A stretch of DNA of 63,851 bases, counting the filler, from Folioceros fuciformis (Eukaryota), in NCBI GenBank assembly GCA_049999805.1. It is 3 parts of 2 records of this genome, joined end to end, with 100 filler letters (N's around TTAATTAATTAA, not from the genome) between each part and the next. Parts side by side here need not be neighbours in the genome. Positions count along the whole stretch, not along the records: positions 1 to 20,304 come from JBNGIO010006342.1; positions 20,405 to 47,623 come from JBNGIO010006342.1; 1 more part is not named here. The stretch is one strand, 5' to 3'. The notes beneath the pieces were generated by a model, which saw only the letters and a list, made by a program, of their open reading frames with translations, made no database searches and was not told the DNA's origin. Within the stretch, counting starts at the first letter, position 1, and the number at the start of each line of letters is the position of its first letter. Position numbers and translations under genes: made by a program. Below are positions 15,699 through 47,723 of the stretch, one piece after another.

Positions 15699-16379
15699 TC
15701 CACAAAAATAACACTCTCAGAATGGCCTGCTTTGACCATCGAGAAACCCGCCCTCATGCTTCTTCGGACGTCCGTCCTTCATTCCTCTTGCCTGCAAAGC
15801 AAGAACGAACAGCCTGCGCCTCGAACAAGCGAGGCAATCACAGAATTTCACGGCAGCAAACGCAAAGGCCAACCAACCGCCTTGACCCCCAACGCTCCCC
15901 CCCCCCCCACCCCCCGTAAGAGAGAGTCACGCAGTACCCTGCAACAGAGATTGCCACATCTGGTTCAGTATGATCAAGCTATACAAAATTCCGAGTTCCT
16001 CACCACCGAAGCTGCAGGCCTGCGACAAGCAAAGTAAGAAGCAAAAGACAAATGGGAAAGGCAGAGCAGCCTGTGATTTTGCAGCGACCGCCGGATCCCC
16101 ACCTTCTGACGTCTACACGCACAGATTCCACGAGTTGTTCGAAGCCAAGGCCTGAGGTGCCTTTAGTCTGCCATAGGCACCATCGCCCTATTGACGCTTT
16201 ACTTAGACTTTCCAAACGAAATTTGAAGTCTTCTTTTATCCCATCTCCAATTCTAAACTAAAATAGATGCTCTCATGCCCAGAGGCTTTCCCATCGATAC
16301 CCGATGGTCATTAAGACAAATACGGGTCTGACTCGATGGCCATTAACGCAAATATGGTCAGACCCGTCCGGACGCGCAA

Positions 16380-16640
16380 CCCGATGTACCCTGGTTTCCT
16401 ATCGACATACGAGACATAGCATCAACCGATGTACCCGGGCTTGATGTTGACATACACGACATAGCAACATCAGAATGTGGTTCCCGTCGGATACCCGGGT
16501 TTTAGCAACATCAGTTTGTGGTTCCCGTCGCATACCCGGGTTTTAGCAACATCAGTTTGTGGTTCCCGTCACATATCCGGGTTTTGTACCCGTTGTCTAT
16601 AGCATTTTCATACCGGCTTTCCATACCCGGGATGAAAGGT
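16380..16640. repeat. Tandem/subterminal-type repeats (~41-bp unit tagcaacatcagtttgtggttcccgtc..atacccgggttt, 3 copies, plus scattered acccggg motifs)
   Basis: Directly visible repeated units at 16462-16585. Confidence 0.8.
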
Positions 16641-16734
16641 TTCTAAACCCGTGGGTTTTTCAAAGTCCAGGTTTCAAATAAGCTTTTCAAATTTATGCGC
16701 TTCTATGCGATCATGAAAGAAAGCGGTGGATGCA

Positions 16735-17090
16735 AAGATAGGACGCCTAACCAGTTGCACCTCATGGTAGGAGTGTGGGGATAGGACGTCTAATATGCTG
16801 CACCTCATGGCAGGAGTGTGGAGAACCTCATGGCAGGAGCATGGAGACAGGACGCTTAATATGCTGCACCTCATGGCAGGAGTGTGGAGATAGGACGCCT
16901 CATTTGCTGCACCTCATGGTAGGAGTGTGGAGATAGGACACCTAATCTACTGCACCTCATGGTAGGAGAGTGGATTGAATTTCAAGGGCAAGGATCTTAC
17001 ATGAAGTTCTTTCTCATCGCACCTCATGGTAGGAGAGCGGATTGAATTTCAAGGGCAAGGATCTTACATGAAGTTCTTTCTCATCACTAA
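16735..17090. repeat. ~40-45-bp tandem repeat (gcacctcatggYaggagtgtggagataggacg) followed by a ~66-bp direct duplication
   Basis: About seven acctcatggYaggag cores. ggattgaatttcaagggcaaggatcttacatgaagttctttctcatc occurs twice. Confidence 0.85.
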
Positions 17091-18399
17091 TCAACGGAAG
17101 AGTACAAAGAGTTTCCCTAACTCCTCTTTCGTATGAAAGGCCAAATGAGTTGTTGTCCTCGTGAAGGAATCAAGGAGTCACCACATGAGGGCATAAGCCA
17201 AATGGGTCTTTGTATAAAGAAACATCCACAATATGCCACTTCACAAGTTGAACACATGCAAAAAGCGAGTTGAATTCTTGGGAATGTTTGAAGGTACAAA
17301 GTTGTCTTGAGTTCTTCACAGATGAGACAACTATGTGTCTTAACTAAAATTGTCTCAATTGGTTAGCAGGATGCATATGTTGGATGTTGGTTTTCGTGTC
17401 TAAATGTAGCAATGGTAAGTAGTGAACTGCACTACATCAACAACATAGTAAAACATCAACAACATAGTAAAACCTCATAGAGTGGCACTTGAGGAATATG
17501 GTGCACTACACCATGTGGTCAATCCACTATGCTTAGCTATGGCAAGGTGTTCACTTGGTCAAGTACAAGTTGCCATTTTCTCAAGTACTATGATACCAGG
17601 TACCTTAGGAATGTTTGTGAGATGCATATGTTCGAGTGCTAGTTTCTATCAATTGCTTGCCACTAGTTTGGAAGGCCTCCAACCCTACACTTAGTTTCTC
17701 TGCCATTGCTACCGATTGCTTGCCACATGTTTAGAAGGCGCTCAACCCTACACTTAGTTTCTCTACCACCTATACTTTCACCCTTGTGTTGCCACCTGGA
17801 ATTGGACCTCATGTTGACAAACTTCTGGGTACAATGGTCACATTGGTGGCCACCATGTGATCTTATGTTGACAAACTGCTAGTCACAATGGTCACATTGG
17901 TGGCCACCATATTCCCTTGATGCCACGTTCGTAACCTTGCTCTTAGCACAACACCCAGTCACATGTCTCTCGTTCGCACTTAGCAATTGACCTTGTTGCT
18001 TGGCATAGAGGGCACATGAGTGATTGGACAGCATGAGCATAAGGTGCATATAGTGTCATGTGGTCAATCCAATGTGCTACTACTTGGTCACTGCAATCTG
18101 TCCGCTTGGTCAGGTACATGTTGTCATTTTCCCAAGTACTATGACAAATATTTCACTGGTCAAGTCCCTTTAGGGTTCCATGCTAGCTCATATGCATAGT
18201 CTGGTATTCACATGGTCTCCTTATGGATGCACTACATTGTGGGTTGTGTGGACGGAATTTTATTTGCAGTTTTACTAGGAGCACCCTAATATTCAAGTAG
18301 GCCAACGGACATTCAGGAAATTGAAGAATTGAAGCCCTTCTGTGTGAAGAGTTTGCGAGGAAGGAAACTTTGTTGTAGGTATAATGTAGAGATGGCATC

Positions 18400-20197
18400 T
18401 CTGAAGGATGCCTTCAATGAATTGTAAGGAACCAGTTCAAGAGTTTATCCTCGTGGCACCTACCACTAATCCTATGATGTTTGTGCATGTACCACTTTTG
18501 GGTCAGTCTTTCCTACCTGCAATGCTGCATCCTCCTCTTTGCTATTGGTGAGATTCTTGTGTGAACGTATTATGTGTGGAAGGAAACCAAATGCTTATTG
18601 GCATGCTCTTCCATCCTTGTAAGGAAAGTTTGCCAAATGTGATGTCAGCACACTACGATTTTGATTGGTGGAAGTGGATACATATATTCAACCACACTTT
18701 GTGCTTAAGTGGCACTATTTCCAATACTAAGTCATGGGCAAAGATGCAGATCAAATTAGTGTTCACGGAAACCCACCCAACCATGTTTGTGGATTTCCAA
18801 AAGGGTACATTGCAAGAGTTTGTGCTCCATGATTTCACTCAACGATGGCAAGGTATAGAGTTTAAACAATCTATAGAATGGTTTCCACCAGAAGTCGTTG
18901 TGTTGTGATATATTTCTCTCGCATCTACACTTTCTTTGTATAGACCAAAATTCAGTCGATGCATGAGTGAAACGACCAAGTATCCATTATGGTTTTGGTA
19001 TTTTACATGTGCAATGGGCCCCTCCATGCTGAAGATCCAACATCCACCATAGAGAAGTATTACCATTTTTATATTAGCGATGACATTGTCCATGACACCC
19101 TTTTTGTGCAAAACTATTTGTTACATCAATGATAGTGGATGCAGAATTCTGGGATTCTGACTTCGTGGGAGCACTAGTGCTAGTTAGATGGAGCAACTAG
19201 TTAATTTAAGGCTTGTCGACCATCCTACTTCATTGCTCGTTACCCCGGCCTAACACAAGGGTGCAACATGTTGTGGTCATATTTTGGAAGTGAGCAAGGG
19301 AAAGAGGAGCATAATAGTGTTGGTGCAATACTAAAGAGAGCGCTCAAAGCAGCCAACTCCACCCCTACAACTGGTCACTTGCAGAGTGCAGTGGGTGTGA
19401 TGATGTACCTCTGGAACAACATCTCTAATGCTGCTGCAACTTCATATATGTTTAGCAAGCATAAGGTGAATTAGAGTTTTTGGCTAATCGATAAAAATTA
19501 GGTGAACCTCAACAACAAATATGGATGTGACCCCATTCGAGGCTCAAGGATGATGCACAACTTGTATGGTTGCAATGTGAGTGGCCCTACGCAACTAATG
19601 ATGCAAAGCTTGGCTTGCTTTTGTGTGGAGTGTATTCAAAGAAACCGTACTGATTGTGAGACTATCCCTCACTCTGGATTTTGGAAACCGGTGACAATTA
19701 GGCCTCATGGGGATGCAACCGCTCCTCGAATTACTAGGCAAGTTGTTGCAAAGTCAATGACAAAGCTCCCTAGTGCTAGTACTGATTTTATCACCTATGT
19801 GGACGAAACTGATGTGAATGTCTCGCAATTGGTGACAACTTCCTTGTTTTAGCAAACTCGAAAGATGAGAGACAAGACTTTTACCTCATACGCTGCATTG
19901 AAGCAAACCACGAGTTTCGAGTGTCTCGCCATGGTTCTTGGAGCATTACCACCTACCAATCATAGGAGGAGGTGGTTGTTGGTCAGTACTAGGTACCATT
20001 TACAAGAAGAAGAGCTAGGCCATGTGTATAATTTGCCCCTTCATCTGCACGAGTGCATCTTGCCCGCAGTGCTTGTTTAAGCATGCAAATTTGAGATGGC
20101 CCCCCTACACCAAGAGAGTGAACTGTGGCTTTGCCCCCTTCCCTGTTGAAGCACATGTTGTGGTGACCAAAGTGGTGGAGGAATGCTTTTGTGACTC
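18400..20197 (+). mobile_element. Decayed DDD transposase, Sola2-type
   Basis: Read through stops and frameshifts: IYFSRIYTFFV*TKIQSMHE*NDQVSI (approximates DFSENY..QxEIQSxHW), HFYISDDIVHDTLFVQ, LDGATS*FK (approximates SDGxxxQFK) and WSYFGSEQGKEEHNSVGAILKR (approximates HGKGxxDGxGxxxKR), then ACFCVEC. Motif order matches Sola2 transposases as I recall them. Confidence 0.65.
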
Positions 20198-23100
20198 TGT
20201 GGAGACCACATGGTAGATAGGCCTCTTAGAAAATGGGTGGTATTTGTTTTTTTTGGGGTTTTGATAGAATTCCTTGAAGACATAATTAGGAAACTATGTT
20301 AGATNNNNNNNNNNNNNNNNNNNNNNNNNNNNNNNNNNNNNNNNNNNNTTAATTAATTAANNNNNNNNNNNNNNNNNNNNNNNNNNNNNNNNNNNNNNNN
20401 NNNNGCTTGGCCGGATCCGGAGGGGCAGCAGGCCTCTGGCAAGTGGCCGAATCCAGGCAAGAAGGAGGTCGCGCATCCAGGCTAGTGCAAGAGAATCGAA
20501 CCCAGACAGGCCATGGCGGCTGAGCAGGGGGCTGAGTCGCAGCAGTCTTGCGATCCGCTGGCCGGGACGGAGCTAGGTAGGGGCTGGTTGGCGGGCACAT
20601 CCTCCTTGCTAGCCGGATCTAGCCAGCCCGGAGCTAGCCAGGTGGCGATTGTGGCAGCCTGCAGGCGGATCTGCTGGCTAGCTGCATGGCCAAATCCAAG
20701 AGGACAGGCCGACCTGGCAAGCGGTCTGGAGGGTGGCTAGGCCAGCGGCGGCCCGGTTGTGCGACCAGTGGGGCTGGCCGGCTGGATGCGGCTGCGGGCG
20801 GCCGGACTGGTCGTGACTGCAGGCACACAACCAGCAGGCAGCCTGGTAGCGGCCTGGCTGGTCGGCGGCAGGCTAGTTGGCAAGCGGCCGGCAGGCGATC
20901 TTGCAGGCAGCCGCCTGGTGTAGGCCGGCTGGCTGGAGGAGATCCTAGCTGGCAGGGCGAGGAGCGGGGGGCGCCGCCAGAGCAGGTACCCACCTGGCGG
21001 GTGGCTCAGCGGGATCTGGGGCTATCCAGGCGGGCTGTAGGCAGGGCTAGGGGGACGATGGATCCAGCAGCCAGGTCGACTAGCTAGACCATGGCCAGTC
21101 GGTGGCTAGCTCGATCATGGCCAAAGCAGCCAGGCTGCAGGTAGGCGCGGCCACCGGGCCGGTTGCGGAGGAGGCTGGAGAAAATTCAGGCCGGCAGGCG
21201 GATCAGCAGCTGCTGGATCTGGAATTGGCAGGTGGCTGGCTGGGGGAAGTCCAGGCCAAGGGGAATCCTGGCAGGTGGCTGGCCTAGCAGTAGCTGGTTG
21301 AGGAGCAGGCAACCAGGCAAGGCTACTAGATCCAGGAGGCGGGTAGAATCCAGGTCGCAGGTATATCGAATCCAGGGAAGCAACGGCGGATAGACGGCTG
21401 AGGCGGCGGGTTAGTTGGCTAGCAGGTAGCCCAATCATCAGTATGGGGACCGACAGGCAGCACCCCGCCCAGCAGATCGGGCTGCAGGCAGCTAGCAGTG
21501 GCAATGGGTCGCGTGCGACCAAGTGGTGGGCAGGATCGATCAGGCAACAAGGCGGCCGAGGAAGTCGGGCAGTGACTGGCTGCAGGAACCGAGCAGCCAA
21601 GCAGGCTGGCTGCCTCGCTGGATCTGGAAGGCAGGAGGCCGGTGTATGGCCTCAGTGCAGGCAGCCTAGCGCTGAAGGCTAATTGCGTGGGAGGAAGGGC
21701 TCCAGACGGCTGGGGCCGGATTCAGTTGGCCAGGGGATCCGAGTGGAGCACTGGCCTCCAGGTGACCGGCGCTCCGAGCAAGCGAGTGCCATGATTAGTC
21801 TAGCAGACTGGCTGGTTGGTGGAGAATCTAAGCCTTGCCGGATTGCTGGGGCTGAGCGGGCCGGGGTGGCAGGATCTAGGCAACCATGTCGGTGGAATCC
21901 AAGCAGGAATGAGGGGCTCAAGCAACCCGGCGGGTGGTCGGATTGTGACCGGTCGACGGGCTGGCTGAATCCCGGTATAGCAGCGGCTAGCTGGATCGGG
22001 GCCAGGCCTACCAAGCGGGGAGCAAGGGTGGCCCTCGTGAGACGGCTGGGGGCTGGATTCGGGAGCCAGGCAACGACTTGCAGCCTGGCTGCAAGATCCT
22101 AAGCAAGAAGGTCAGTGGGATTTGGGCTTTGGTCTCGGGTGGATCCGGTTGGCTACAGATGCAAGGGAGGGTGCCTGGGCCCTGGTTGATGGTTAGCTGT
22201 CTGGATACGGGCTGCAAGGCACTAGATGAGTAGATCTACCGAGGCATGGGGTCCTTGGCCAGCAGGATGGGGAGTAGACGACTGGAAGAAGGTGGAGTCT
22301 CTGAGGGATTGCAGATGATCTAAGGGAAAGGAGAGGATCGGAGATTGCAGATGATCTAAGGGAAAGGAGAGGATCGGAGAGGGGAAGAGGGTGTCAAGAG
22401 GCACTTCTGAGTTTTGGTATTTTGGAGAGATTGATTGATTTTGATAAGAGCAACCAGGGCCGCAAGTCGGAGTTAGGTTAGGTTAGAGTTAGGTTAGGTC
22501 AGAGTTAGAGTTAGGATTAGGTCAGAGTTAGGTTTAGGGTTTTGACGAGTGGGGGTTCTGTACGAGGCGTGCCGACGTGGTTAGGTAGCGACATGGAGGT
22601 ATAAGAGGCCAGGCTTGTCATTGAGATAGAAGTTTTTTTGGTGAAGAGCGCCCTTGACCTTGTGTGCAGGTTGCTGGGGTAGAGGGTTAATCCAGTGTGC
22701 ACATGCGCCTCGGCCGTGATTCCCTATGCCACTAGGGGAACGCGGCGGCTCCCAAAATTGCTGAGATTTGGGTGGCCAGATCTGCAAGGGCTGACCTTTT
22801 TTGCATGTTGGTTGGGTGGTTGGGGTACCTTGATGTCCCTAAGGGGTTTCCAAGGCAACGAACTGCAGGGCTGTGAGCTGAGGAGGCTATCCAACCTGGG
22901 TCTGCACATCCCTGCCTCAAGGACTGCAAGTGAGGGGCTGTTGTGTTCCAAAGATCCAGGAGTGAGACGTGAGGGTGAAGGGCTGAAGAGTTGAAGCGTT
23001 GGAGTAGAGACTTGAAGTGCTGGAGTAGAGACTTGAGGTGCTGGAGTTTGGAGTGGTTGTGTTGAGGTGAGGAGCTTAGGTGCTGAAGTTCTCAATCAGC

Positions 23101-23375
23101 TGCTGAGGTGGCTGGCATTTAGGGCTGAGAGTGGAGGTTGAGGCCAGGGCTAGGGCCTCCTCTCAGCTGCTGAGGTGGCTAATACCCGGAGCTGGAAGTG
23201 GGAGCTGAAGGTCTAGGAGCCGGCTGATAGATAGGATCAGATTAGGGCAGTGTGGGGAAGACTGTACGAAACCTTGACACTAGTTCACTCCCTTGGGAGT
23301 GAATCCTAGTACTACGACAATAATAAGAGGGAAGTGTGGCCCTTAGTGGTTCTTGGGTGTAAGTTCCACTCCACA
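20198..23375 (+). mobile_element. Solo LTR, family X copy 1 (~3.2 kb including a gap)
   Basis: Termini TGTGGAG...CTCCACA and a perfect 5-bp TSD GACTC (20193-20197 / 23376-23380). Both ends are shared with copies 2 and 3. TATA-like tataagagg at 22600. Confidence 0.88.
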
Positions 23376-24005
23376 GACTCCACAAGCATCCACCCTTAGA
23401 GATCCCTTATACTCATTTTTGCCCCTACCTTAAGGCCATGCATGTTTAGTAGTTAAGAACGTGGCATTGTTTCCTTTGAAAAGCCCGCCATATTCACTAT
23501 CTGGCTATTTTGTGTGCTATTGCACATGGAATTCTTCAACCGCAATGTGTGCCTACCATATCGTGACCACTTCCCCAGGGGTGCGCACTTGTGATATTTT
23601 TGTAATTGCCAAATTTATGCATCGATAGTCCCCTTTCCTCAGTCGACCTAGCACAGGCTCCTGACGGTGGCCCCATCGTCCCACCACGTATTGCTTGCTG
23701 GTCGCCCCACTTGCAACATGGTCTAACCCAGACGGGAGGATTCCACAAAGCCCATTTTGCGCATTTGAAATTTGTCGTGATCCGCACACCTTATCTACCT
23801 TTGATCTAATTTCACAAACAATGACGCCACCGACATGTATTTGTATATTCTTTTTTCTCCAAATGTCAATAAAACCAAAATAAATGAAGTAAACATTTTA
23901 AGTATTCTACTAGAAACTTGATATTTCTTAATTGAAGCATATGGTGCACTAGTCAACCGGCGCACAAACTATTCAAAGTACTTCACGTTCAAGTTTATGA
24001 CGAGT

Positions 24006-27000
24006 TCAAGTTAAGTCAAGTTTATGGTCAAACAAAAACTGGGTCATCCTGGTTGGATCTCTCAGCCGTTGTGCATCCATATCGCCAAAGTCATTGCTGC
24101 CAACTCGTAGCACCAAGAAGTTGGGGTCCTTTGTAGTTTGGGGCGGCAAAGTACAATTCTCATCCCAGACAGTGATGGCGTAAAGGTCCTCTGCTGGCCT
24201 ATCATCAATTTGGGATATGACCTCTCCTTTCTTGCCCAACATATTGAACACCATCAATTTGCGATCTAGTACGCTACCATCACCGTACACTTCCTTCGCC
24301 CAAAACTTTGATGGGCCTCGTGTAAACGACTCTGTCGTAAACTCCTCATCTGCGTCAGGCAAAGACCCTAGCCCGATAATCCGCTGCATAATATATGAAG
24401 TGCACTTGACATCCACATCGATAGCCACCGCATGCCTTCCATGCTGAACTACACTTTGGAGAAGAGATCGCGAGCCTGCGCATGCATCAACCACCCAGTC
24501 CCCTTCACAAGAAAACATATTAATAAGCATACTCATCAACCCCAATGGTTTTTGGTAAGGGGAGACGACATGCGCATCTGCGGAATGGAAAAGGTGCTTC
24601 TTCACCACCGCTCCATGCCTTATAACCCTTGGTAAGAGAAATCCATGATTCGCAAAAAGTGCAGCCTTTGATTCTTGAGCCTCTATTTGCACTACACTTC
24701 CAACAGTGACATATTCAACTATTTCCACTGCTCCTACATTTCAAGGTATGTTATTCTTCTCCCATACCAATGTCTGAATACTCCCCTTCTTGCACCATGG
24801 CCGTAGTGCCTCCCTTGCTTCCGAAATCATATCTACTTCGTGCATTAGAATAACTCTAAAAATATTGCTCGAAGTGCATTCACTGAACCCTCAAAGCATT
24901 TCATCTAACTCGGCTACCTTCATTTGCTTGTCATACTCATGCCATTGTAATCCCCGAGGCAAGTCTGCAAATAGCAACATATAGGGGCGTTTGACAAGAA
25001 ATGCCTTCATTTCGACTACATTCCTTTGAATAACCTGGTATTTTACCTTTGAGTTACTCGCCGGAACCTGAAAATCCGATGACCCTACGTCCATATCAGT
25101 TGCCACCAGCTTCTGCTTCTCTTCTTCCATCCTTTTCCAGTTTTTCGCCGAATATACGAAATCCTAGAATGGCTTGGGCAGTGACTCCAAGTCTGCTATA
25201 TCTGAAGGTTTCTGCAACCAGAATAGTACACGTTAGTTTGGCTACCGATTAAGCTACTTTAACCTGAGCAGACATGAGTGCACTGGTCTACCGGCGCACT
25301 GTTGACCAAGCCGGCTACCCAAGTGCGCCAGTAGACCAGCACACTTAGAGCTCGAGCTAGCTATAGTGTGCCGGTAGAGCGGTGCCCTAGAGCCCGAGCA
25401 GCCAGCAGTGCGCCGGTAGACCGGCGCACTCCTGCCGCAGTCGGCAACGGTGTGCCGATAAGCCAGTGCACTGCTGCCATGTAGGACCAGAGTGCGCCGA
25501 TAAACTAGCGCACTGCTGCCATGCAGGACCAGAGTGCACCGGTAGACCGACGCACTTTAGTCCGATGCACTGCATTAGGGGAGGGAAACAACAGCAAAGA
25601 AGGACTGTCGAACTTTGGCGAAGGGGAACTTTGGCGAAGGCTGTCTGGAATTTCAAAAGATGGTCATCTTCAGTGCGATTGGGGTAGATCTCTTCTGCTT
25701 CTTCAATGGTGTCACACTTCATGGCCATTCGGAAAGCATGTTGTATCAAATGAATCTTCTTCTTCCCAACTTCAGTGTCCATGTCTCTCAGTTGAAGCTT
25801 GCCCTGAATAACCTTCTGCGTCACCGCTATCAACATCTCCTCTCCCTTCACACCTGTTGGGACACCTTGAAAGGCTCTCCATGGCCTGCCCTGCATCGCT
25901 CTTGGCCTCCTGCTGCTATCGTCCGTCACTTGGGTAACAGAACTCTGTAAGGCAGAATCTTGTGTCTTTCGTTTTGCCTTAGCCCTCTTTGTGGTCCCTC
26001 CTGTTACCGTGCTCTTTTGCTCTGCCAGCTCACCCTGTTCCCACATTATGAATATCCTGTCCACATTGTCCCAAAGAACCCCAAAGCATCTGGCTACTCG
26101 ATATGGCAAGGTCTGCCTATCCACCATCTTCTGCACCCAGTCTATGTCGTGAGGATCTCCACCTTCGTCAATCATACCTAGCAACCTGTATAGGTTGAAC
26201 TTCCACTTCACTGGCGGCTTCTCTTCCACTGAATGATTCCGGAAAAAAATATCTAGCTCGTCATGGATGTATCGCACATGCTCAATGAACCCCATCCTCT
26301 TCCTCTTGTCTGCATAGACATTGTGGTTGATAGCGAGAACCCTCATCTCTTCCTCTATCAACCCAGCATACACGTGCCCTTCCATCCATTCATACTTATC
26401 TTCCGCGGGGAACATCTGGTGGAGTTTCTGCATGGCTACAAAGCAGTGGTTGCCCCCTAAGACTCCCATATGGTATTGCTATGCTGTTATCCNNNNNNNN
26501 NNNNNNNNNNNNNNNNNNNNNNNNNNNNNNNNNNNNNNNNNNNNNNNNNNNNNNNNNNNNNNNNNNNNNNNNNNNNNNNNNNNNNNNNNNNNGTCGACAG
26601 CGAGAACCCTCATCTCTTCCTCTGTCAACCCAGCATACACGTGCCCTTCCATCCATTCATACTTATCTTCCACGGGGACATTTGGTGGAGTTTTTGCATG
26701 GCTGCAAAGCAGTGGGTGCCCCCTAAGACTCCCATATGGTATTGCTGCGCCGTTATCGTGTCCAAGGAAACCTCTTCCTTGCTCACTGCTTGCTTCGGAT
26801 CAATCATACAAAGGAGGGGCAAGATCCCTTCCTTAATGGAGCCAGCTTGCATCTGCCTTACTAAGCTCTTCATCCAAGCTTCGTCTACTTGCCTTATCTG
26901 AGCGTAAGAGGTGATGAAAGACGCAGGATGCAACACATCTACATGCAGATTAAACGTTGTGGACCGAATCCTCTTGGCGTGGGCCTTCTTCCTTATCCCA

Positions 27001-28468
27001 TTCAAGTAGTCTTCATCCTGCGCTAACCTCTCAAACCCCTCTGTATCTATTTCTACTATTTGAGTGGGCTCTGGCTCCACCTGCTGCACTGCACCGCCCT
27101 TCCTTCTCTTCTACTTCGCTGCCTGCCCTCTTGCTACAGTGCCTGTTGGTATTCGCCACTTTGGCTGCAGAGATGTGGCTATGGAGACATACAGCCGTTG
27201 TTAGATCGGGGTCAGCAGTCAATGCTTTTCCAATAGAATCAAAGTACCAAAAACAACCCCATAGCAATTTGCTAAGCATGCACATAACAGCCTCACCGGA
27301 TGTCATCTTCCACTGTTTCGAAGGAGATGCTGATGCTTTCCTCTTCCGCTGCCCTGGTCCGCTGGTAGACTGGCGCACCTGGGTCACCCTCTTTTGTGGT
27401 GGAGTGATCTCAAGTGGGGACTCATCAGATGCATCACCCTCGCAGGAATTGCGGGGCATCTCCAGAGCATCGTTCAGACTGTCTTCCGCTGAGGAGTATT
27501 GAGCCATCTCCTGGACTTCCTCCTCTTCGCTGTGTTCTGGAACGTCAGGTGCCTCCTCTTTTGAAACCTCAGGTTGCATACGCGGCATCTCCTGCCTATC
27601 CTTCAAGAAATCCACTGCACAAGTGTTCAAGACACCAAATTCTACTTGCACCGACTTCCATCGCCGCTCCCCCACAAGCCGCCTCACAAGAGCCCTGTTC
27701 TTCAGCACCGCGTCTCCTACACACTGCAACACAATTCGACAAAACTGTTCTCCAACCTAATTAGCGAACAAGCAGACACAAAGTTAGGGTTTATGGTCAT
27801 TCTTGGTAATGAAATATTAAACTTTTAAGCTGAAAAGACCACTTACATCCTTCAATAAAAGACAGTCTTTTAGAGCGTTTCTCAACCACAGCGGTTCGCA
27901 TCGCCAAGGAATGGCCTTCGCAACATTCACAACCACTAAACTGTGATTGTCGTACTCATACGTAATGTGGCCTGGTGGGTGTCGGGTTAGGATGAAATTC
28001 ATGTGAGTTTTGTTGTCTACACCATCCACTGATGCACAAAGAATCCATCCTACCCTTCCTGCTTCGTCCTCCGCCAAGGCTTGAAAACCATTCACCCACA
28101 GAGCAACAGGAGGAATCCACGACAAGTTCAAGTCATCAGGCTCATCTTCAGCTATCAAAAACCATTCCTTATCAGTGTTGAATCTTTTGGCCAGAGTGTC
28201 TTCTAACTTCTTCAGTCTCAATCTCTCTACAAAGTTGTAGGCATTCGGAATGTTGTAATTCTGACTGCCTCATGTACTGCCTTCTTGATTCACATTCAGA
28301 GGAATGTGGTTCAGAGGTCCATCGCTTGCTTTTGAATTGGACGATCTCACTGTCCCACCTGAGTTATCCTTTCTTCCTCCGTTAGTCTGGGCAATAGGAG
28401 TAGCCTCTTCGCCAGCGGGTGCTGTAGATCGGTGTCCATCTCTTTCAGTGTTGTGACCAGACGACACT
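24006..28468 (-). pseudogene. Intron-containing gene for a ParB/Srx-like domain plus beta-class N4/N6 DNA methyltransferase (N6_N4_Mtase-like) fusion protein, decayed; main body
   Basis: ParB-like IRQVDEAWMKSL..GILPLL..GVLGGNH.F.AMQKL..VYAGL.EEEMRVLAINHN. MTase motif IV YMLLFADLPRG, then LVWEK, then QKPLGLMSMLINMFSCEGDWVVDACAGSRSLL..GRHAVAIDVD (motifs X/I/II). Predicted GT-AG introns at about 27845-27759, 27297-27165 and 25611-25212. Several TGA/TAG stops and frameshifts. Confidence 0.82.
25277..25556. repeat. Array of seven 24-bp palindromic repeats (consensus AGTGCGCCGG-TAGA-CCGGCGCACT) with 18-21-bp spacers
   Basis: Copies start at 25277, 25322, 25365, 25407, 25449, 25491 and 25533. An eighth isolated copy lies at 23943-23966. 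Confidence 0.9.
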
Positions 28469-30338: not shown

Positions 30339-30350
30339 TGGTATCAGAGC
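30339..30350 (+). promoter_or_regulatory. Primer-binding site complementary to the initiator tRNA-Met 3' end
   Basis: TGGTATCAGAGC immediately follows the 5' LTR. Confidence 0.93.
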
Positions 30351-37000: not shown

Positions 37001-39327
37001 GAGGAGCCCACCCAGCCTGCAGCGAACGTGTCCCACAGAGCTCTCCTGGCGCAAGCGTTGATGGCTGCACAAGATTTGGGTGAACCCGCGTCCTACCGGG
37101 AAGCTTTGACTTCAAAGGAGCACAAAGAGTGGCAGGCTGCTATTGATTCAGAGTATCAGTCTTTGATCGACAACCATACTTGGCAGCTGCGCCCTCTTCC
37201 TCCAGGCAGACAACCCATGACTTGCAAATGGGTCTTCAAGCGGAAACTCCATCCTGATGGGAGCACAGCTCGCTTCAAAGCAAGGTTAGTGGTGCGAGGG
37301 TTCTCACAACGAGAAGGCCTCGATTATAATGAGATCTTCTCTCCAGTTGTGAAGTCTACCTCTGTAAGGGCACTGCTGGCTGTTGCTGCACAAATGAAGA
37401 TGCAAGTGCACCAAATGGATGTACAAACCGCCTTTCTAAATGGTACCTTGGAAGAAGAAGTTTACATGGAGCAGCCGGAGGGCTACGTCAGTAAGTCCCA
37501 TCCGAATCACTTCTGCAAGCTACAGAAGACGTTGTATGGCCTGAAGCAGTCTCCAAGAGCCTGGTACAATCGCATCCATCAATACTTAATCAAGTCAGGT
37601 TTTGTACAATCACCAATAGATGGCAATGTTTATATTTTGAGAGAAGGGGATGCGGTGGTGTACCTCGCTCTCTATGTTGATGACACGCTAATTTTTGCAA
37701 GTGCACCAAAGATCATGCAGAAAGTGAAGGACATCCTGTCCTCACAATTCAAAATGACTGACCTGGGCATGGTCAAGTTTTTCCTGGGAGTGCAAGCAAT
37801 CGTCAACCTGGTTGACTCGAGTATCTTTATCCACCAGGAGCATTATGTGTACAGGCTCCTGGAAAAGTTCGGCATGAAGGACCGCAAGCCTGTAAGTACA
37901 CCTCTCGCAGTGGGAGATTTTTTCTCGGTGGACCAAGCACCTACTACAGACAAGGAGAGGCAAGAGATGTTAGGCATTCCCTACGGCAAACTAGCAGGAT
38001 GCCTAGATTGGCTGAGTGGCTGGACGAGACCGGATCTTGCTCTGTCTTCTCACAACATTTCGAAGTATATATCTAACCCTGGACAGCAGCACTGGTCGAA
38101 GGCAAAGAGAGCTTTGAGATACCTGAAATTGCATCTGAAGCTCGGCCTTCTGTACAAGCATCAGCCAGGCAAGATACCTCCTACTTTAGCCTGCTTTACT
38201 GATGCGGACTGGGCAGGAGATAAGGATACTCGCAAGTCGGTCACGGCTTACTATGTGATTTTGAGTGGGAGCACCATCTCCTGGACCTGTAAAAGGCAGC
38301 AAATTGTTGCTCTGTCCTCCACTGAGGCAGAGTACATAGCAGCGACATCGGCCACACAGGAAGTGCTGCATGCAAGAGCTTTGCTGGACTCCATCGGGAT
38401 GACACAACCTGAGCCGACGACCATATTCTGTGACAATCAGTCCACCATCGCGTTGTCTCGGAATCCGGTCATGCACACACGCACGAGGCACATAGATGTT
38501 AGGTTTCATTTCATACGGCAAGCAATAGCAAATAGGCATATCCACCTAGAGTACGTCCCCACAGATGACAACATAGTGGACATATTTACAAAGCCACTTT
38601 CACGAGATAAGCACGACAAGCACTGCACCAGCCTTGGCCTCATAGACAAACCAATTACTGGTCAGGGCGGCACCTCACTAGGGTAGCTGCACAAAAGGAT
38701 GGGTGCATGCTGTTTGTTTTGCAGGAAATTCAAGCTCACTCAGGATCCTCGCGGAACCATGGAGAGTAACGAAGTGCCAAGCTGCCATTCCGGCCGATCT
38801 CTGCCTGCTCCAACAACATGTTCAACTCTGGACATCGAGAAAACTTTGGAAGGCGCTATAAGCCTTCAAGGCAATCTGAAGAAGGACGGTGGCGGCGTGA
38901 TGCGGAGCACACTCTCTCGAGCTTAGCAATGATTCCAGCGACAAGCAAAAGGCAGGCCATCCAGATCCAAACCGGAGACATCTGGCCAAGATTCATGTTT
39001 CCTGCCGGAGGCTGGCGGCGGGCGCAAAGTGTCGAGCAAGTGGGAGTGTTAGAAAAGGGCTGTGCCCTAATTACTTTAATACTCAAACACTTATGCTAGT
39101 TAGGGTTTTACATATTTAGATACGAAATGCTACCCTAGCTATATGGGCAGAAGGCCAACGACCAACTGCTAGGTAACGGCTAACTGCCGTACCGACCTCC
39201 TGTTCGCGCGACCACAAAGGCCGACGGACACAACATAATTCACAATCTTTTTTCTCACGCACGTCTCGCTCCTATTCGGCCGATCTTAGTCCATGTCTTG
39301 ATACTTTGATTTCCCTTGTTTTTCCCA
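34100..39327 (+). mobile_element. Ty1/copia retrotransposon B nested in the gag of element A; 5' LTR missing
   Basis: gag from 34188 (DRFDGSGYDVW, CNWCLFPGHHEHEC), PR YLDSGASAH, WHWQLGH, integrase, RT YVDD and RNase H ending at 38686. Three in-frame stops and a frameshift near 36750. PPT at 39038-39046 and putative 3' LTR at 39047-39327 (TG...CA), after which A's gag resumes (ELDAVV*LLTSLPPSY). Confidence 0.9.
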
Positions 39328-42300
39328 TGCCTGAGCTTGATGCTGTAGTATAGCTTTTGACTAGCCTTCCACCTAGCTACCAGTCTTTCGTAACTAGCTA
39401 TGGTGCCACACTTCGTGATGCTGGTAAGGCTGCAACAGCAGGTCAGCCAGTGATGATTAGCTTTGCCGATGTGGTTGGAGCTCTCTTTCAGGAAGAGCAG
39501 TCTCGCAACACATCGCACTTTAATTCTGGCAGGACCAAAACTGACAAGGTTCTCTCTACATCCAAGTTCCGCCCCAAAGGCCGTGGCAAGCTTCCTACAG
39601 CTGGCCCTTCTAAGGATTCCAAGTCATGACAGGTCAAGAGGACAGATGCCTGTAATTGGTGCGGATCCCTTAGTCATTGGGAACGAGAATGTAGAAAGAA
39701 AAAGGCCGGAGAACCTAAGAAAGCCGAGAAGACTCCTCAAGCTCATTCAGTCTCCAAGCCTTCTAAGGTCAGCACCTCGGGCAAGCCTCTCGTTGTTATG
39801 ACAGTTTGTCTTTCCACTGCTTCCAGGGTGGATGACTTTTGGTATTTGGATTCCGGAGCAACAACACACATCTGTCACAACCGAACTTTGATGAGCAATT
39901 TTGTCCCATTGCACACTGCTGAACAGGTACTTTTGGGAGATGAGCTTACTAGAACAGGACTCAAGATTCTTGGACGCGGCTCCTGCTATTTTCAGCCATC
40001 TCATGGAGAGCTCCTTCGAATCGACAACGTCCTCTATGTGCCTAATATGGCCAAACACCTTTTGTCAGTAAGCCAGGTTATGCAGCTTAAATGTTTTCGG
40101 CTAACTTTTACTTCTGATGGATGCATGCTCACTACATCTGGTCCTTCACCTTCTCTGGTTGCTAAGGGCTTGCTAGAGCATGATTTATATAGGCTAGATA
40201 TGTCTTATGTACCTGCTAAGAGTGCCCGTGTGGCTGAGAGGTCTTAGGCAGCTTTAGCTCAGTTGTGGCATGCCCGTCTGGGCCATGCTCACAAAGATAA
40301 ACTTATTACAATGTCCAATTTAGAATGCTATAGAGAACCACTACCTAAGTGTTTTAAGGCCCTTCCCCTTTGTGATGCTTGCATAGTAGCCAAGCAGAAA
40401 GAACTTCCGTTTCCAAAAACTGTAGCTACACGCACTACGTCCGTCTTAGACCTAGTTCATGCAGATATCTCTAGGAAAATACATGTTCCTTCTTTAGGTG
40501 GTTCCCTCTATTACCTCACCCTTACGGATGACTTTAGCCGCTATTCTTGGACTTTTCCCATGAAGAAGAAGTCGGACACTTTTGTCTATTTTCAGGAATG
40601 GCTTACCACGGTTCAAAGACAGACAGGCTGCTCTCTAAAATGCTTGAGGTCGGACAATGGTACGGAGTTTGTGAATGGCCCTTTTGATGAGTATTTATCC
40701 AGCCAAGGGATCATTCGGCAACTTAGCGTTCCGTATACTCAGCAACAGAACGGTGTTGCTGAGCGCCGGAACCAGACTCTGCTCAGCATGACTCGGAGTA
40801 TGCTAGCTTGGTCCGGCTTGAGCAAGGCATATTGGGCAGAAGCAGTTGTGACTGCCACCTATATTCTCAACAGGTTGCTTACCACAGCTGTTCCTAATTG
40901 TACACCTTTCGAACGGATTTGGACACACAAGCCAAGCTTGCTTCATCTCCGAGTGTTCGGCTCCCTTGTCTATGCTTATATCCATGAGGAACAAAGGAAG
41001 AAGCTGGAAGATCGAGCTCAACCCCTTATTTTTGTTGGATATGGTGAGGAGACGAAGGCCTACAAGTTGTACGACCCTTCCACCAGATCTTNNNNNNNNN
41101 NNNNNNNNNNNNNNNNNNNNNNNNNNNNNNNNNNNNNNNNNNNNNNNNNNNNNNNNNNNNNNNNNNNNNNNNNNNNNNNNNNNNNNNNNNNCTCGGAGTG
41201 TCACCTTCAAGGAGCTCACTCAACCAGCTACAACCACTTCTGACCCTACTCCTCCTTTTGATGATGCGGACTTTGATGCCCCTCCCACAGAGTATCCTCA
41301 ATATGCTGCTTATGACCTGCCACCTCGCCCTCCTTTTGATCTTCATGCAGCTAGCAGTTCAGGGGGTGGATTTCCCGCATATGTGCAGATCGCACAGGCT
41401 CCTCCTACATCACAGACACAGGTTCCTGTGCAAGCACCTACACCATCGACTCCTGCACCCACAGCCATAGTTACTGCTGACTCTTTTCTGGACTTTCCTG
41501 AGCAGCAGGATGCAGAAGTTGAGCAGGATGACGAGTCTCAGTTTGACTCACAGCATGTGGACATCCATCTTGATGGTCCTGACTAGCTAGAAGATGAACC
41601 TGAGCTTGCAGCCCTTCCAGAGCCTGAGCCACAACCAGCTGAGGAGACACTTCCTGAACCTGTAGTCGAGGAACGGAGGTATCCTACAAGATCTCGTCCT
41701 GCACGAGACAACTGGAATGAAAGACCATATGAACTAGAGGATTTCCGTCTTCCTCGATCTGCAAGGCTATGTGAAGCCTTCTCTACAAGCACAGCTCATC
41801 CAGCAGATTCTCGTACATATCGAGAGGCCATTATTGGTCCGGACAAGCATCATTGGATCCCTTCAATTCAAGATGAATATAATTCATTAATTAAGAATGG
41901 GACATGGGAGCTATGTCCTTTACCAGCTGGGAGGAAACCAATGAGTTGCAAATGGGTTTTCAAACACAAGCTGAATGCTCAGGGAGAAATAGCCCGCTAC
42001 AAGTCACATTTGGTTGCTCGGGGTTTTTCTCAACTTGCAAGGGTAGACTTTAATGAGACATTCAGCCCTGTTGTCAAGACACAGACTATCAGGATGCTAC
42101 TCGCTCTTGCAGCTGCTAGAGATTGGGATCTCGAGCAGATGCACGTTTCAACCGCATTCTTGTATGGAGCACTTGAAGAAGACATATATATGGATCAGCC
42201 TGAAGGATTCGTGGACGCTGAACATTCAGATTGGGTCTGCAAATTAAACAAGACCATATACGGCTTGAAGCAAAGTGCCCGTGAGTGGTACAAATGTATT

Positions 42301-45300
42301 GATAAATATCTCAAGTCGATAGGTTTCATCCCAAATCCAGCTGACTCCAACGTCTACATCTATTCCAAAGGAGGTCACCTGGTCATCCTAGCACTTTATG
42401 TGGATGATGTTATACTAGCATCCAACAACAGAGAATTACTGGACTGGGTGAAAGGAATGCTGCACAAGGAGTACAATATGCAGGACATTGGACCACTTAC
42501 CTTTGTCCTTGGCGTTCAGTTGTTGCGAGATAGACCTAACCGTACCCTTATCCTACATCAGACTAAATATATTGGTGAGACTCTTAGATGCTTTAACTTG
42601 CAGGATGCTAAACCTATCAGCACACTAGGAAGCCTTAGGGTTAAGCTCTCTGCTCACCAGTGCTCGCAAGATGACTATGAACGTGAGGCTATGAGTCAAG
42701 TTCCTTATCGCCATGCCGTGGGCTGCCATAATTACATTAGCTGTTGGACTAGACCGGATATTCAGCACTCCGTTGGTGTTGTTTCCCAATACCTTGAGAA
42801 CCCAGGCCCCGAACATTGGATGGCAGTTAAGAGGATCCTACGGTACCTTAAAGGCACCTCTACATTTGGGTTATGTTTCCAGGGCGATGACCGTGCATTC
42901 ACCCTTGAGGGATACGCAGATGCTGATTGGGCTACAGACCCAGATCAAAGGAAAAGCATTTCTGCATATTGTTTCCTACTCTCTGGTGCGGCAGTCAACT
43001 GGAGCTCTAAGAAACAAACTTCCATAGCCCTCTCTTCAATTGAGGCCGAATACAAAGCTCTCACGGAATTAGCCAAGGAGGCTGAATGGGAGCGCACTTT
43101 TCTTGCATGATTGGGCTTTCCTCAGTCGGTTCCCACCACTATCTTCTGCGACAATATGTCTACTATTGCCTTGGTTGGGAATCCCCGCTTTCATGCGCGC
43201 ACCAAGCACATCGAAGTTCACTACCACTATGTTCGACATTCTATGGAGCGCAAGGTGATCAAGATCCAACACATATCCACGGAGCTCAATACAGCCGACT
43301 TGCTTACAAAGAGCTTACCAACAAACAAGCATGTCTTCCACACGGAGGCACTGGGCCTCGTAGACTATTCTTCCTACTTGCCTTGAGTTGCAAGTGGAGG
43401 TGCCGGGTGCTGGATGGATGAAGCTTATCGTTCACCTAATCGTCCAACACTCAGCTCGTTTTCTACATCGCCCATCTTCGTCTACATCCCTAATGTAACC
43501 AGCGTCGTGGTTAAGGGGGTGTGTTAAACCCCATAGCTTATTATAGTAACCATGGTCGCTGGGTTACCTAGACTAGGGTTAGGTATGTTACTTAGGGTTT
43601 AGTATTTGAGACCAACACTTTGTAATCATATATACATTATTCATTATTCAAGTTTGTTGTTCTCTCCAAGCAATATTGTCAGAATGTAGGGCGGTGGTGT
43701 CGGATCGGCAGGCCAAGCAGCCAGGCAAGGCTGCCAGATCAAGGAGGCAGCCAAACCCGACCAGGCAGCAAGTGCCGGATCAGCGGCTGCTGTGGAGGGG
43801 TCAGCCGGGCTGGGCCATGGCGGCTAGGCAGGAGGCTGAGTCACAGCGGTCCTGCGATCTGCTGGTCGGGACGGAGCCAGGTAGGGGCTGGCTGGCGGGT
43901 ACGTCCGGCTTGCTAGCCATTCTAGCCAGCCCAGAGCTAGCCAGGCGGCGGTGCTGGATCCGCGGGTGTACCAGACCGCGGCCGGACCCAGGCTGAGGAC
44001 GGGGCTGGCTGGCTAGATGCAACTGGAGGCAGGGCGGCTCCGCTGCTAGCGACTGGTCAAGGTGGATCCAGCCAACCAGTCGGCGGGCTGGATGTATTGG
44101 AGGCGAAGTAGCCAAGCTGAATTCGGGCGGGAAGGCAGAAGAAAGGTGACGGGTTGCTGGGGAGTCTCGACAACGGTGAGCCTGGGCCAGCTGCATGCAG
44201 GCAACAGGCGGGCCAACAAGCTAGCCGCTCGAATGGATCCGAAGGCCAGCAGCGGCCCAAATGCTGGTGGCTGGCCGGGGTGGATCCAAGTAGCTAAGCC
44301 GATGGGTTGGACCCTGGTCCGTCGGCGACCTGGCTAAATCGGGGCCGAAGCCACCAGGCTGTAGGGGGTGAGTCCGGCCGGGATGGCTTGGCTAGTTACG
44401 GCTGGCAGTAGCGGCTGAGGCGTTTGGCTTGCGGGCCTAGGTGACCCCTGGCTGGATCAAGTGCCAGGCCGAGCGAGCGGCCTGGGCAAATCAGCCAAGA
44501 GGTGGTGTGCGTCCGGGCTGGTAGCCGGGCCTGGAAGTCGGAAGGTCGGCTTGCAACCTCTGGACAGGATATGCCGGCGGCCCGACTTGCTGGTGGGCAG
44601 GCCCGCTGCAGGCGAGGGGAAGATGGACTGGCCGGGATCATGTGCAGGCTGGCCTGGGTTGTGTTTAGCAGGATGGCTAGCTAGCTAGGGTGGGGGTCGG
44701 CACTGAGTGAGTTGGATCAGTAACCTGGATGACGGCTAGTTGGTGGCAGGATCACAAACAGGGTATGGGTCGGATCCAAGCATACGGCGGCTGACTGAGG
44801 TGAAAGAAAGGCCAATCTCAGCCGCCGGGCACCAGACCCCTAAAGAGTGGATCAAGGGGTGGGGCTAGAATTCGGGGAGTAGGGACAAGGTGGAGTGGAA
44901 GCAGCTCGAGTCTGGCTCCGGCTCGAGTATGGCTTTGGTCAAGGGGGTTACAGTGACTTGGACAAGGGTTGGGGGGGGTGAAGGCTTCCAGGAGAATGCG
45001 TGCAGACGAAGCTGAGGGATACCACCTCATCCAGATATATGACATAAGTGGCATTCGGCTTTCCATCCACAAGCAACACACCTAGTTGCTTATAGGCGGA
45101 AAGTCTAGTACAGGCGTGCTGCTAGCGCGTGGGAAGCCCAGTGATGGTTATGTTGGCGGAGATGATGGGTTGTCACTTCTAGTGCCAAGCTTACAAGGTG
45201 CCCACTCAGGGCACTAGATGAGTAGCTCTACCAGGTCATGGGCCTTGGCCAGCAGAATGGAGGGAAGGATCTGAAGAGGGTGGGGTCTCTCAAGGATTGC

Positions 45301-46391
45301 AAATGATTCGAGGGAGGAGAGGAGAGTGTTGAGAGGCATTGATGATTTTGTGAGAGGCTGGTCAATTTTGGTAAGGGCACCCAGTGGTGTCAAAGGGATA
45401 CAACCCCTCTTATGTCGGGGTTAGGTTAGGTCAGACTTAGGGTTAGGATTAGGTCAGAGGTAGGTTTAGGTCAGAGATAGGTTTAGGTCAGAGTTAGGGG
45501 CGGCTTAGGTCAGAGAGAGATTGTTGGACGGTGGAGTGAGGCTAACCCTAGTAGATAGAGATGGGGTTATGGGCCAGGGTAGTATAAGAGGCTAGGCCTC
45601 TCATTGAGGAGGGGTGGTCTTACGGTGTGATTTCCCTGGACCTTGTGTGCAGGCTACCAGATTAGAGTGGCTGATTCAGTGTGAGACTAACCAAGGGCTT
45701 GATTCCCCTTGCCATTAGGGGGACGTGGTGGATCCCTAGACTACCTAGATCCGTGTGGCCGGATCCGCAATGGCTGATCATTTTGCAGGTTGGTTGAGGT
45801 AAGGTGGCAGGGCCGTGAGCCAAGGAGGCTATCCAGCCCTAGCCCTCATACCTCTGCCTTGAAGACTGCAAGGGGAAAGGTTGTTGTGTCCAAAATTCCA
45901 GGTTGAGCTGCAGATTTTGGGAGTAGAAGATGAAGTGCTGGAATGAGTTGAAGTGAAGTGTGAAGATGTTAGAGTGAGTTGAAGTGAAGTGTGGAGGTGT
46001 TGGAGTGAGTTGAAGTGAAGTGTGGAGGTGTTGGAGTGAGTTGAAGTTAAGTGGTGAAGTGTTAGATGAAGTAGTAAAGTGTGAAGAGAAGTGCTGGAGT
46101 GAAGGATTGGAGTGAAGAAGTGAAGGGCTGAAGTGAAGAAGTGAAGGGCTGAATGACTGAAGTGCTAGAGTATGGGATTGGTATGTTGAGTTGAAAACAG
46201 GGCTAGGGATTCTGATCTTTTTGCTGTAGCATGGTCAGGGTTAGGAACTGGCTGATAGTTAGAATCAGATTAGGGAATTGTAGGTAACCTTGACACTAGT
46301 TCACTTCCTTGGGAGCGAATCATAAGACTGCAACGATAATAAGGGAAAATGTGGCCCCTTGGTGGTTCTTGGGTGTAAGAATCACTCCACA

Positions 46392-46500
46392 ACGCTCGCG
46401 CAGTTGCTTTCTCGGCTTGCCTTTGCTTTCGTAATCGGGGAAGCGTCTCGACATCCTTGTCCACCAGCAGTAGTTTGTTGCTACGACGACCAAATGCCAT
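46392..46500 (-). pseudogene. Displaced 5' coding segment of the ParB-methyltransferase gene
   Basis: MAFGRRSNKLLLVDKDVETLPRLRKQRQAEKATARA continues in frame into SSGHNTERDG (28463 downward) once solo LTR copy 2 and one TSD copy are removed. Confidence 0.7.
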
Positions 46501-47723
46501 TGGTGTGCACCCAAAAAGGGAAGAGTCGAAAAGCACTTAGTCTTTTCTGGAGACGGAAGCTGTTGTAGAAGAAGTGCCCATGCAGCGGATTTGTACAAGA
46601 CAGATTTCGAAAAGGTACGGTACAGCTCAAAAACGAATACCCACTGTTGCCGACCGCCAATGCATTTATAGCTTGATGAAGGTCATATCAGGTGGCGATT
46701 CTTGTTGAACAGTTAGTTCTATTTTGGCTCACATGTTCAAATTGAACTAGCGTGATGAAGGTCGTTTCAAGCGGCGATTCTCGCTGAACAGTAGTTCTAT
46801 TTTTGGTCTAACGTTCACATTGCATTAAACACCAGCGCTTCGGGACTTGGTTGAGGGGCATTGTTACAACGTTGCAGATTTGAAAGCCAGCCTAGCCGAA
46901 GTTCATACACACCATTTGTTCTTTCCTGCTTCCATGGAAAACAAACCTTCATCATTATGTCGCGGTATGGAGAAGTGTTGTGAAGATAGTAGCGACGAAG
47001 GTTTGGAAGAACGGACAATGCTTAGTATTCGTCGATTCACATGAATTTGATTTGCTTCTGTTTTACTAATGCGTGGATGATTCTTATCCCCGGGATACCA
47101 TCCTTGCAGACATCAGTTTGAGGAGTTCAGGTCGTTGCTAATCCGTCTGAGTCTTCTGGACGAAGTTCATAGTTGTCCAAGCCCGTCATCTCTGTGACAT
47201 TCATTTGTAGGCGCAGTGATGAAGACTACACCTCTAAGGGGGAACGCCGATGTCCGTAGGTTCTCGGGAGGGAGTGGCACTGTGAACCTCCGAAGTTTGG
47301 GGTAGTAGTTTGTTTTGGTTGAAAAAGGGTTAATAGTGGTATGGTTTGGTTTTCTTTTTCAACTTATTTTCCCTAATTTTCCTTGATTTTCTGGTCATTT
47401 TTCCTATTTTTCTTTGTGCTAATTGGGTTAATTGACCAGGAAATAGTGGGTTTGGTTATAAGAGTGGGTATAGGTTTGGTCCCAGAGCTGGGAAGGATTA
47501 GGTTCGGTACCAGGCCATAGGGTTGGGTGATTAGTTTAATATTAATTAAAGATATATAATATTAAATGATTAAATAATAATATAATAATATTAAAATAAT
47601 ATAATAATATAATAATGGTTTGANNNNNNNNNNNNNNNNNNNNNNNNNNNNNNNNNNNNNNNNNNNNTTAATTAATTAANNNNNNNNNNNNNNNNNNNNN
47701 NNNNNNNNNNNNNNNNNNNNNNN

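Follow-up and report, generated by a model that had tools for sequence, protein, structure and literature searches.

Unequal decay of a ParB-like/DNA methyltransferase gene and a neighbouring transposase relic in a transposon nest of Folioceros fuciformis

Described ParB-methyltransferase cargo and the Folioceros locus

In the brown alga Ectocarpus, the 21.5-kb Sola-1 DNA transposon Sola1-1_Ec32 carries, opposite its transposase gene, a gene for a 1104-aa protein with ParB-like and DNA methyltransferase (MTase) parts, for which self-binding and self-modification were proposed, and the transposase genes of the giant Ectocarpus elements are often pseudogenes (PMC12477816). We analysed a 63,851-nt stretch of the genome of Folioceros fuciformis (GCA_049999805.1), hereafter the window, which holds a ParB-like/beta-class DNA MTase gene at 28269-24006 on the minus strand, convergent with a DDE-type transposase pseudogene at 18314-19726 on the plus strand. 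A first-pass annotation had proposed that the two form one transposon, a Sola2-type transposase with the MTase as its cargo. That architecture has a precedent in Sola1-1_Ec32, whose ParB-MTase cargo gene runs opposite to a transposase of the Sola superfamily and may serve to mark the element's own DNA (PMC12477816). The MTase gene of the window combines recognisable domains with an internal array of palindromes, exists in many copies and is much less decayed than the transposase, and we give about an even chance to the reading that the region consists of two insertion layers of different age.

The likeness to Sola1-1_Ec32 is drawn from its published description. In both cases a ParB-MTase gene lies opposite a transposase, and the size class agrees, the product being 1104 aa long there (PMC12477816) and the gene about 4.3 kb long here, whereas the host is a brown alga in one case and plant-like in the other. 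The window transposase could be Sola1, Sola2 or neither and shows far more decay than the cargo gene beside it; the ends of the window element were not found.

Other described systems share parts of the arrangement. Red-algal Plavaka (EnSpm/CACTA), Mutator, Zisupton and Fanzor elements carry PF01555 MTase and ParB-like genes (PAG2/PAG3), a cassette that moves between transposon superfamilies (10.1101/2025.02.11.637652). They resemble the window in having PF01555 and ParB-like domains as DNA-transposon cargo and inverted-repeat arrays associated with the ParB-like gene, but there the domains are on separate proteins (the MTase with SET, the ParB-like protein with a 2-oxoglutarate oxygenase) and the array is beside the gene, whereas here the domains are fused and the array is inside the gene (10.1101/2025.02.11.637652). 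Phage and prophage proteins that fuse a ParB-CTPase fold with an N6_N4 methyltransferase have the same domain pair in the same order and, like the window gene, are tied to mobile elements (PMC12704722). The eukaryotic family differs from them by a long additional helical middle region. When a Chara relative of the window protein was compared by tblastn with 50,697 phage records, only the region of the S-adenosylmethionine (SAM) loop matched (13% of the query, 37% identity), so any phage origin is distant. Finally, the Sola2-Fanzor chimeras of Dictyostelium and Polysphondylium join a Sola2 half to exchangeable cargo halves, and Sola2 elements have 4-bp AT-rich target duplications and terminal inverted repeats (TIRs) of 12-21 bp (PMC3627910). 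The cargo of those chimeras is Fanzor1, not an MTase (PMC3627910), and neither such TIRs nor such target duplications were found in the window, where duplications could be read only at defined element ends.

ParB-MTase transposon cargo is thus, as a kind, already known from algae. What appears to be new is a ParB-MTase family with several copies each in a plant-like genome, a fern and Chara, and with members also in Ginkgo and a sea cucumber. Searches of full-text literature brought up no account of such cargo from land plants, nor of a fused ParB-MTase in streptophytes or an echinoderm.

The methyltransferase gene, its family and its copies

The beta-class DNA MTase domain lies at 24006-25229 on the minus strand. 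Its open reading frame (ORF) at 24006-24740 matched PF01555 (N6_N4_Mtase) in Pfam with 31.4 bits against a cut-off of 26.7 (E 2.3e-7), and motif IV precedes motif I as in the beta class, with DLPRG near 25010 and, farther downstream in one and the same frame, the SAM loop near 24480. The canonical form of motif IV is (D/N/S)PP(Y/F/W), and DLPRG does not agree with it. The same DLPRG is found in the two closest relatives, P0002 and P0003, and is therefore a feature of the lineage and not a product of decay; other relatives have DFPYG, DIPHG, DAPYG or DMPQD. The SAM loop reads GSRS in the window copy vs GSGS in P0002 and P0003, and this glycine-rich loop is thus not intact. Because of the Copia insertion in its 5' part, the three in-frame stops in the MTase domain and the glycine-to-arginine change in the SAM loop, the window copy of the gene is, on its sequence, inactive.

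Upstream of the MTase domain, a ParB-like N-domain and a helical, helix-turn-helix-like middle region occupy 25627-27110 on the minus strand and are split by a 100-N gap at 26493-26592. No ParB (ParBc) match to Pfam was obtained with the window ORFs and 32 relatives, and none of the 1059 candidates scored when the 363-aa ParB/middle ORF was used in a word-index search of longer proteins. Farther upstream, at 27031-28269 on the same strand, there are two open frames of 241 aa and 150 aa, one of which is acidic and contains a KRK-rich stretch. Neither matched a known family, and both are also covered by contigs from other copies. A resemblance of the ORF at 27817-28269 to a myosin head was rejected, the matches being to Atlas fragments with a recognition value of 1755 (below the guide value of 2300) and no Pfam myosin match being obtained.

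The relatives of the gene clarify its domain content. A HMMER search of 1.84 billion representatives gave 86 matches, the best at 1.2e-16 and none below 1e-30. PF01555 was present in 19 of the 19 relatives scanned and a ParB family in none of them. Five relatives aligned to both the MTase part (25229-24300) and the N-terminal part (27035-25627) of the window gene; these are from Ginkgo (P0006), the fern Adiantum (P0020), a metagenome (P0041), Chara (P0049) and the sea cucumber Holothuria, an echinoderm (P0072/P0093). Chara braunii accounted for 11 proteins on different contigs among 16 matches, and Adiantum for three family proteins. By eye, the first ~110 residues of one protein of Adiantum nelumboides (P0113, 720 aa) look like a retroelement integrase fragment, joined to a remainder that corresponds to the ParB-remnant/MTase part; P0113 is probably an annotation fusion in a transposon nest.

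Against PDB sequences the family profile matched MboIIA best (1.9e-9), followed by DpnA, RsrI and CcrM, and in Foldseek the model of a Chara protein matched CcrM (1.7e-10) and, by fold, M1.HpyAVI and RsrI. The family thus shares fold and motif order with these beta-class enzymes and with the bdelloid N4-cytosine MTase, which are its best PDB matches, and differs from the bacterial enzymes in motif IV (DLPRG in the window, DFPYG, DIPHG or DAPYG in relatives). The ParB fold was read from the Chara paralogue P0103, to whose N-half the window ORFs align, the window domain itself being split by the gap. The AlphaFold model of this N-half has a predicted local distance difference test (pLDDT) score of 75-95 over residues 100-240; its best Foldseek match was Noc (7nfu, E 5.1e-4), and 26 of the 27 matches listed were ParB, Noc, Spo0J, KorB, PadC, sulfiredoxin or SbnI. 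Given the PF01555 match, the five relatives with both halves and the modelled ParB fold of the Chara relative, the description of the gene as ParB-MTase in the first-pass annotation holds, and the window gene is predicted to encode a fused ParB-like and DNA MTase protein. No family relative was found in metagenome contigs (100 pattern matches with P0041 and 353 with the alignment A3), viral contigs searched with P0049 yielded nothing, and among MTase-family proteins none had a transposase-like part at E <= 1 beyond noise.

The number of copies was studied in two sequencing runs, X1 and X2, from one sample of the same organism, in which 0.66 and 0.55, respectively, of the words sampled from 23376-28468 are present. 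Contig pieces with at least 80% identity were placed on 23200-28600, giving 1358 pieces in X1 and 1340 in X2, counts that include the ends of the long terminal repeats (LTRs). By identity, the X1 pieces comprised 163 at >= 99%, 234 at 95-99%, 472 at 90-95% and 489 below 90%. At the eight sites listed, 10-18 X1 contigs carry a letter different from that of the window, and long pieces from other copies are 81-90% identical to it. Since the contigs thus reveal 10-18 or more distinct versions, the ParB-MTase gene is a dispersed repeat in this organism. A single-copy, syntenic MTase gene would have spoken against the cargo proposal from the outset; what we found is a gene dispersed here and multi-copy in Chara and Adiantum.

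On the side facing the transposase, exact contigs that start from the LTR end stop at 23818 (X1) and 23829 (X2). Summed contig depth rises from ~20 at 23381-23561 to ~86 at 23562-23742 and ~298 at 23743-23923, where a single exact contig has a depth of 9-13. Contig depth, however, is no basis for ranking one part of a gene against another, and contigs can demonstrate that a sequence is present but not that it is absent. These data hint that similarity to other copies ends ~0.2-0.3 kb past the MTase stop codon. In a third run from the same sample, X3, there was a strong G>A excess at 329 places on 23200-28600, and at many sites all contigs have A where the window has G; X3 looks like a bisulfite-type library and might show the cytosine methylation state of the repeat. 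The run X4, RNA only by guess, contributed LTR pieces plus a single piece of 253 nt (82% identity), from which we drew no conclusion.

Within the gene, an array at 25277-25556 is made up of six copies of a 24-bp palindrome of the AGTGCGCCGGT-NN-ACCGGCGCACT type. It separates the mid-domain exon from the MTase exon and probably sits in an intron. The distance from copy to copy is 42-45 bp except for one step of 84 bp, and the 22-nt palindrome core has 6 matches where 0 are expected; weaker copies were observed at 23943 and 27356. Contigs from other copies show joints within 25281-25556, that is, the number of units varies. ParB proteins bind inverted repeats, and on these grounds the array is a candidate binding site for the ParB-like product of the gene in which it lies.

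The transposase relic and the number of insertions

The transposase was recognised through P0001, an unnamed 610-aa protein that reached E 1.5e-31 among 265 candidates when 18839-19474 was read with X at the stops. In tblastn, residues 6-471 of P0001 align with 18314-19726 in a single plus-strand frame (32% identity, E 2.4e-57), which agrees with the plus-strand transposase of the first-pass annotation; matches of P0089 and P0090 at 19813-19956 indicate a weak continuation to ~19956. P0001 matched no Pfam family and no PDB sequence. In the Atlas it falls in unnamed eukaryotic clusters (Cnidaria, Mollusca, Chordata) and with a streptophyte DUF7869 cluster at 0.92, and a search of viral contigs with it found nothing. 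Sola transposases have no Pfam model (PMC5751038), and as P0001 is without a Pfam or PDB match, the label Sola2 for the transposase at 18314-19726 is neither confirmed nor refuted.

As annotated before, both genes are decayed, but very unequally so: the transposase frame has 16 in-frame stops in 471 codons vs 3 stops in 701 homology-supported codons of the MTase gene (odds ratio 8.2, Fisher p 1.5e-4). The content of stop-prone codons is equal, 0.10 per codon in both, and unequal decay at equal stop-prone content argues against a single insertion. CpG observed/expected values are 0.35 in the transposase, 0.71 in the MTase domain and 0.43-0.49 in the ParB part, and in the spacer 0.47 at 23381-23600 and 0.81 at 23601-23820. 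As an age marker, CpG depletion was set aside as weak; it tells the transposase and the MTase domain apart, but fails to do so for the transposase and the ParB part.

The two genes are separated by a solo Copia-family LTR at 20198-23375 (plus strand, TG...CA ends), which is flanked by identical 5-bp target duplications, GACTC, at 20193-20197 and 23376-23380, and whose ends match those of the block at 28469-46391 (88.8% over 107 nt, 77.9% over 163 nt). This LTR holds a linker of the form N44-TTAATTAATTAA-N44 at 20305-20404. The spacer between the gene ends, 23381-24005, is spanned from the LTR end to 23818/23829 by exact contigs; with the LTR removed the genes lie ~0.67 kb apart, close to the ~0.6 kb reported before. 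The second block, 28469-46391 (plus strand), is a Copia nest with RVT_2, rve and gag domains that interrupts the MTase unit in its 5' part; the letters on its two sides, ACACT and ACGCT, agree at 4 of 5 positions. Both LTR insertions of the first-pass annotation were thus located and their ends and flanking duplications read, and what is left without them computes to 3.9 + 5.1 + 1.2 = 10.2 kb, as against the ~10 kb given earlier.

In the two-layer reading, the first layer would be the old, heavily decayed DDE transposase relic at 18314-19726, and the second a younger, dead copy of a dispersed repeat of at least 5 kb whose sole recognisable gene is the ParB-MTase gene. The long protein of this second layer would begin with a ParB-like N-domain, continue with a helical middle region that binds DNA and end in a beta-class N6-adenine/N4-cytosine DNA MTase, and its gene would fall in the same class as the cargo ('accessory') proteins reported from transposons of brown and red algae. 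We infer that the ParB-like part would bind the 24-bp palindromes of the ~42-bp-spaced array inside the gene, that the MTase part would then methylate the element's own DNA, and that this self-methylation could alter host silencing or recognition of the element. As to the order of insertion, the transposase most likely came by a separate event from the MTase gene, although it could nonetheless be what is left of an element of the sort that transports such cargo.

The proposal of one composite DNA transposon, in which a Sola-like transposase and a convergent ParB-MTase cargo gene were later split by the solo LTR and the Copia nest, survives in part, and we consider it less likely than not. Its layout is that published for Ectocarpus Sola1-1_Ec32, where such transposases are often pseudogenes (PMC12477816), and Sola2 elements are known to swap cargo halves, as in the Sola2-Fanzor chimeras (PMC3627910). 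The genes stand tail to tail at ~0.67 kb without the LTR, the left tandem arrays of the nest could be subterminal repeats, and the MTase gene is multi-copy, as expected of cargo. What does not fit is the 8-fold difference in stop density at equal stop-prone content. It could have arisen within one element if the transposase was already dead in a non-autonomous lineage moved in trans, if selection kept the MTase half in place, or if the MTase half was refreshed by gene conversion from younger copies. Had a lineage with a dead transposase amplified, its copies would be expected to have the spacer in common, but contig depth over the 180 bp on the transposase side is about that of one copy as against tens in the gene, subject to the limits of contig depth given above. 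Inverted matches between the left flank and any right flank were at most 13 nt long and at chance level, so the TIRs that the first-pass annotation had failed to identify were not found in our repeat search either, although decay could hide short ones; no 4-bp AT-rich target duplications were found, which could be read only at defined element ends, and the Sola assignment, taken from the first-pass annotation, is putative. In sum, multi-copy MTase and published architecture speak for a single element, and unequal decay, the drop in depth and the lack of TIRs speak against it.

Several observations weigh against two layers. A ParB-MTase gene opposite a Sola-superfamily transposase is the published Sola1-1_Ec32 layout, which makes chance adjacency of two such rare gene types, tail to tail within 0.7 kb, an uncomfortable explanation; with the published layouts in mind, we doubt that chance alone would place such a pair at 0.67 kb. 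The depth argument comes from contigs, which were placed on the MTase side (23200-28600). The CpG value of the ParB part (0.43-0.49) is as low as that of the spacer adjoining the transposase (0.47), so composition separates the layers poorly. No termini of the MTase-bearing unit, nor target duplications of it, were found in the window, and the right end of the element may lie in or beyond the gap at 47624. Binding of the palindromes and methylation are predictions. The transposase side is also joined to the MTase side across a linker inside a high-copy solo LTR, a caveat for any reading of the pair. The gap in the ParB region adds to this caveat, since its duplicated 166-nt flanks (26326-26491 and 26593-26757) are 92.8% identical and the gene may therefore have been assembled from two paralogous copies or two haplotypes.

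The two sides could also come from different loci that the assembly joined in the high-copy LTR. The linker inside the LTR and the second gap with its duplicated flanks would be in keeping with this, but GACTC is identical on both outer sides of the LTR (chance ~1 in 1024), sequence of the LTR family lies on both sides of the linker in the right order, and exact contigs bridge the right LTR junction from 23346/23347 to 23818/23829. The matching target duplication supports the join, and an artefact is very improbable. We hold it equally improbable that the MTase gene belongs to a host gene family amplified by segmental or tandem duplication, with the transposase an irrelevant neighbour. The annotated relatives in Chara, Ginkgo, Adiantum and Holothuria are indeed stand-alone gene models, and the missing termini and target duplications would agree with such a family. 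The tens of diverged versions (81-99% identity), the patchy distribution over streptophytes and one echinoderm, the death of the window copy inside a transposon nest and the transposon-borne state of the published algal relatives all point the other way.

A bolder reading, which we put forward as tentative and rather unlikely, is that the fused ParB-MTase is an active 'self-marking' cargo module of streptophytes with its own parS-like intronic array, moved by a Sola-like transposase, and that the window is a rare copy with both halves. The module would then occur in the plant-like genome, Ginkgo, a fern and Chara, plus an echinoderm, and the lineage-specific DLPRG would suggest that the substrate has changed or that the role is not catalytic.

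Bounds of the nest and wider meaning

The window is repeat-rich and plant-like, with Copia-type domains (RVT_2, rve and gag) and an ORF of the BAHD type recognised by Pfam. On the left, an intact ORF at 13833-15716 (minus strand, 627 aa) has a hydrophobic N-terminal stretch and matched no Pfam family; on the right, a BAHD-type acyltransferase ORF of 378 aa at 49402-50538 (minus strand) matched PF02458 (Transferase) with E 1.4e-21. Both are probably host genes at the edges of the nest, and the stretch between them is a transposon nest. To the left of the transposase, a repeat scan located tandem arrays at 16381-16585 (41-45-bp units) and 16737-17085 (43/66-bp units), in accordance with the tandem repeats reported in the LTR-free remainder. 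These arrays, at 16381-17085, may correspond to subterminal sequence of the old element that carried the transposase. A short palindrome, CCCGGG (ACCCGGGT in most), recurs in every one of the 41-45-bp units at 16381-16585. This array and the palindrome array in the MTase gene have similar periods but unrelated sequences; kinship between the left tandem arrays and the palindrome array was rejected because alignment scores fell inside the shuffle range.

In the Copia nest we observed two integrase-RT sets, at 35772-38686 and 40248-43110, and LTR-like ends with patchy matches only (79-95% identity). The block is probably two elements, nested or recombined. To its right, the remainder at 46392-47623, in which no coding signal and no element terminus were found, ends at the second linker gap. 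The window has six N runs. The gaps at 20305-20404 and 47624-47723 both have the form N44-TTAATTAATTAA-N44, a linker with stops in six frames, which suggests contigs joined by a scaffolder and not measured gaps.

The family described here gives a wider host range to the ParB-MTase domain pair, so far reported as transposon cargo only from algae. Transposons with a DNA-modifying enzyme of their own could write N6-methyladenine (6mA) or N4-methylcytosine (4mC) marks on themselves, by which host silencing would be evaded or diverted. With the palindrome array, the hypothesis of a binding site takes a concrete form, and intact candidates, for example the Chara and Ginkgo proteins, bear on the disputed question of transposon-written adenine and N4-cytosine methylation in plants.

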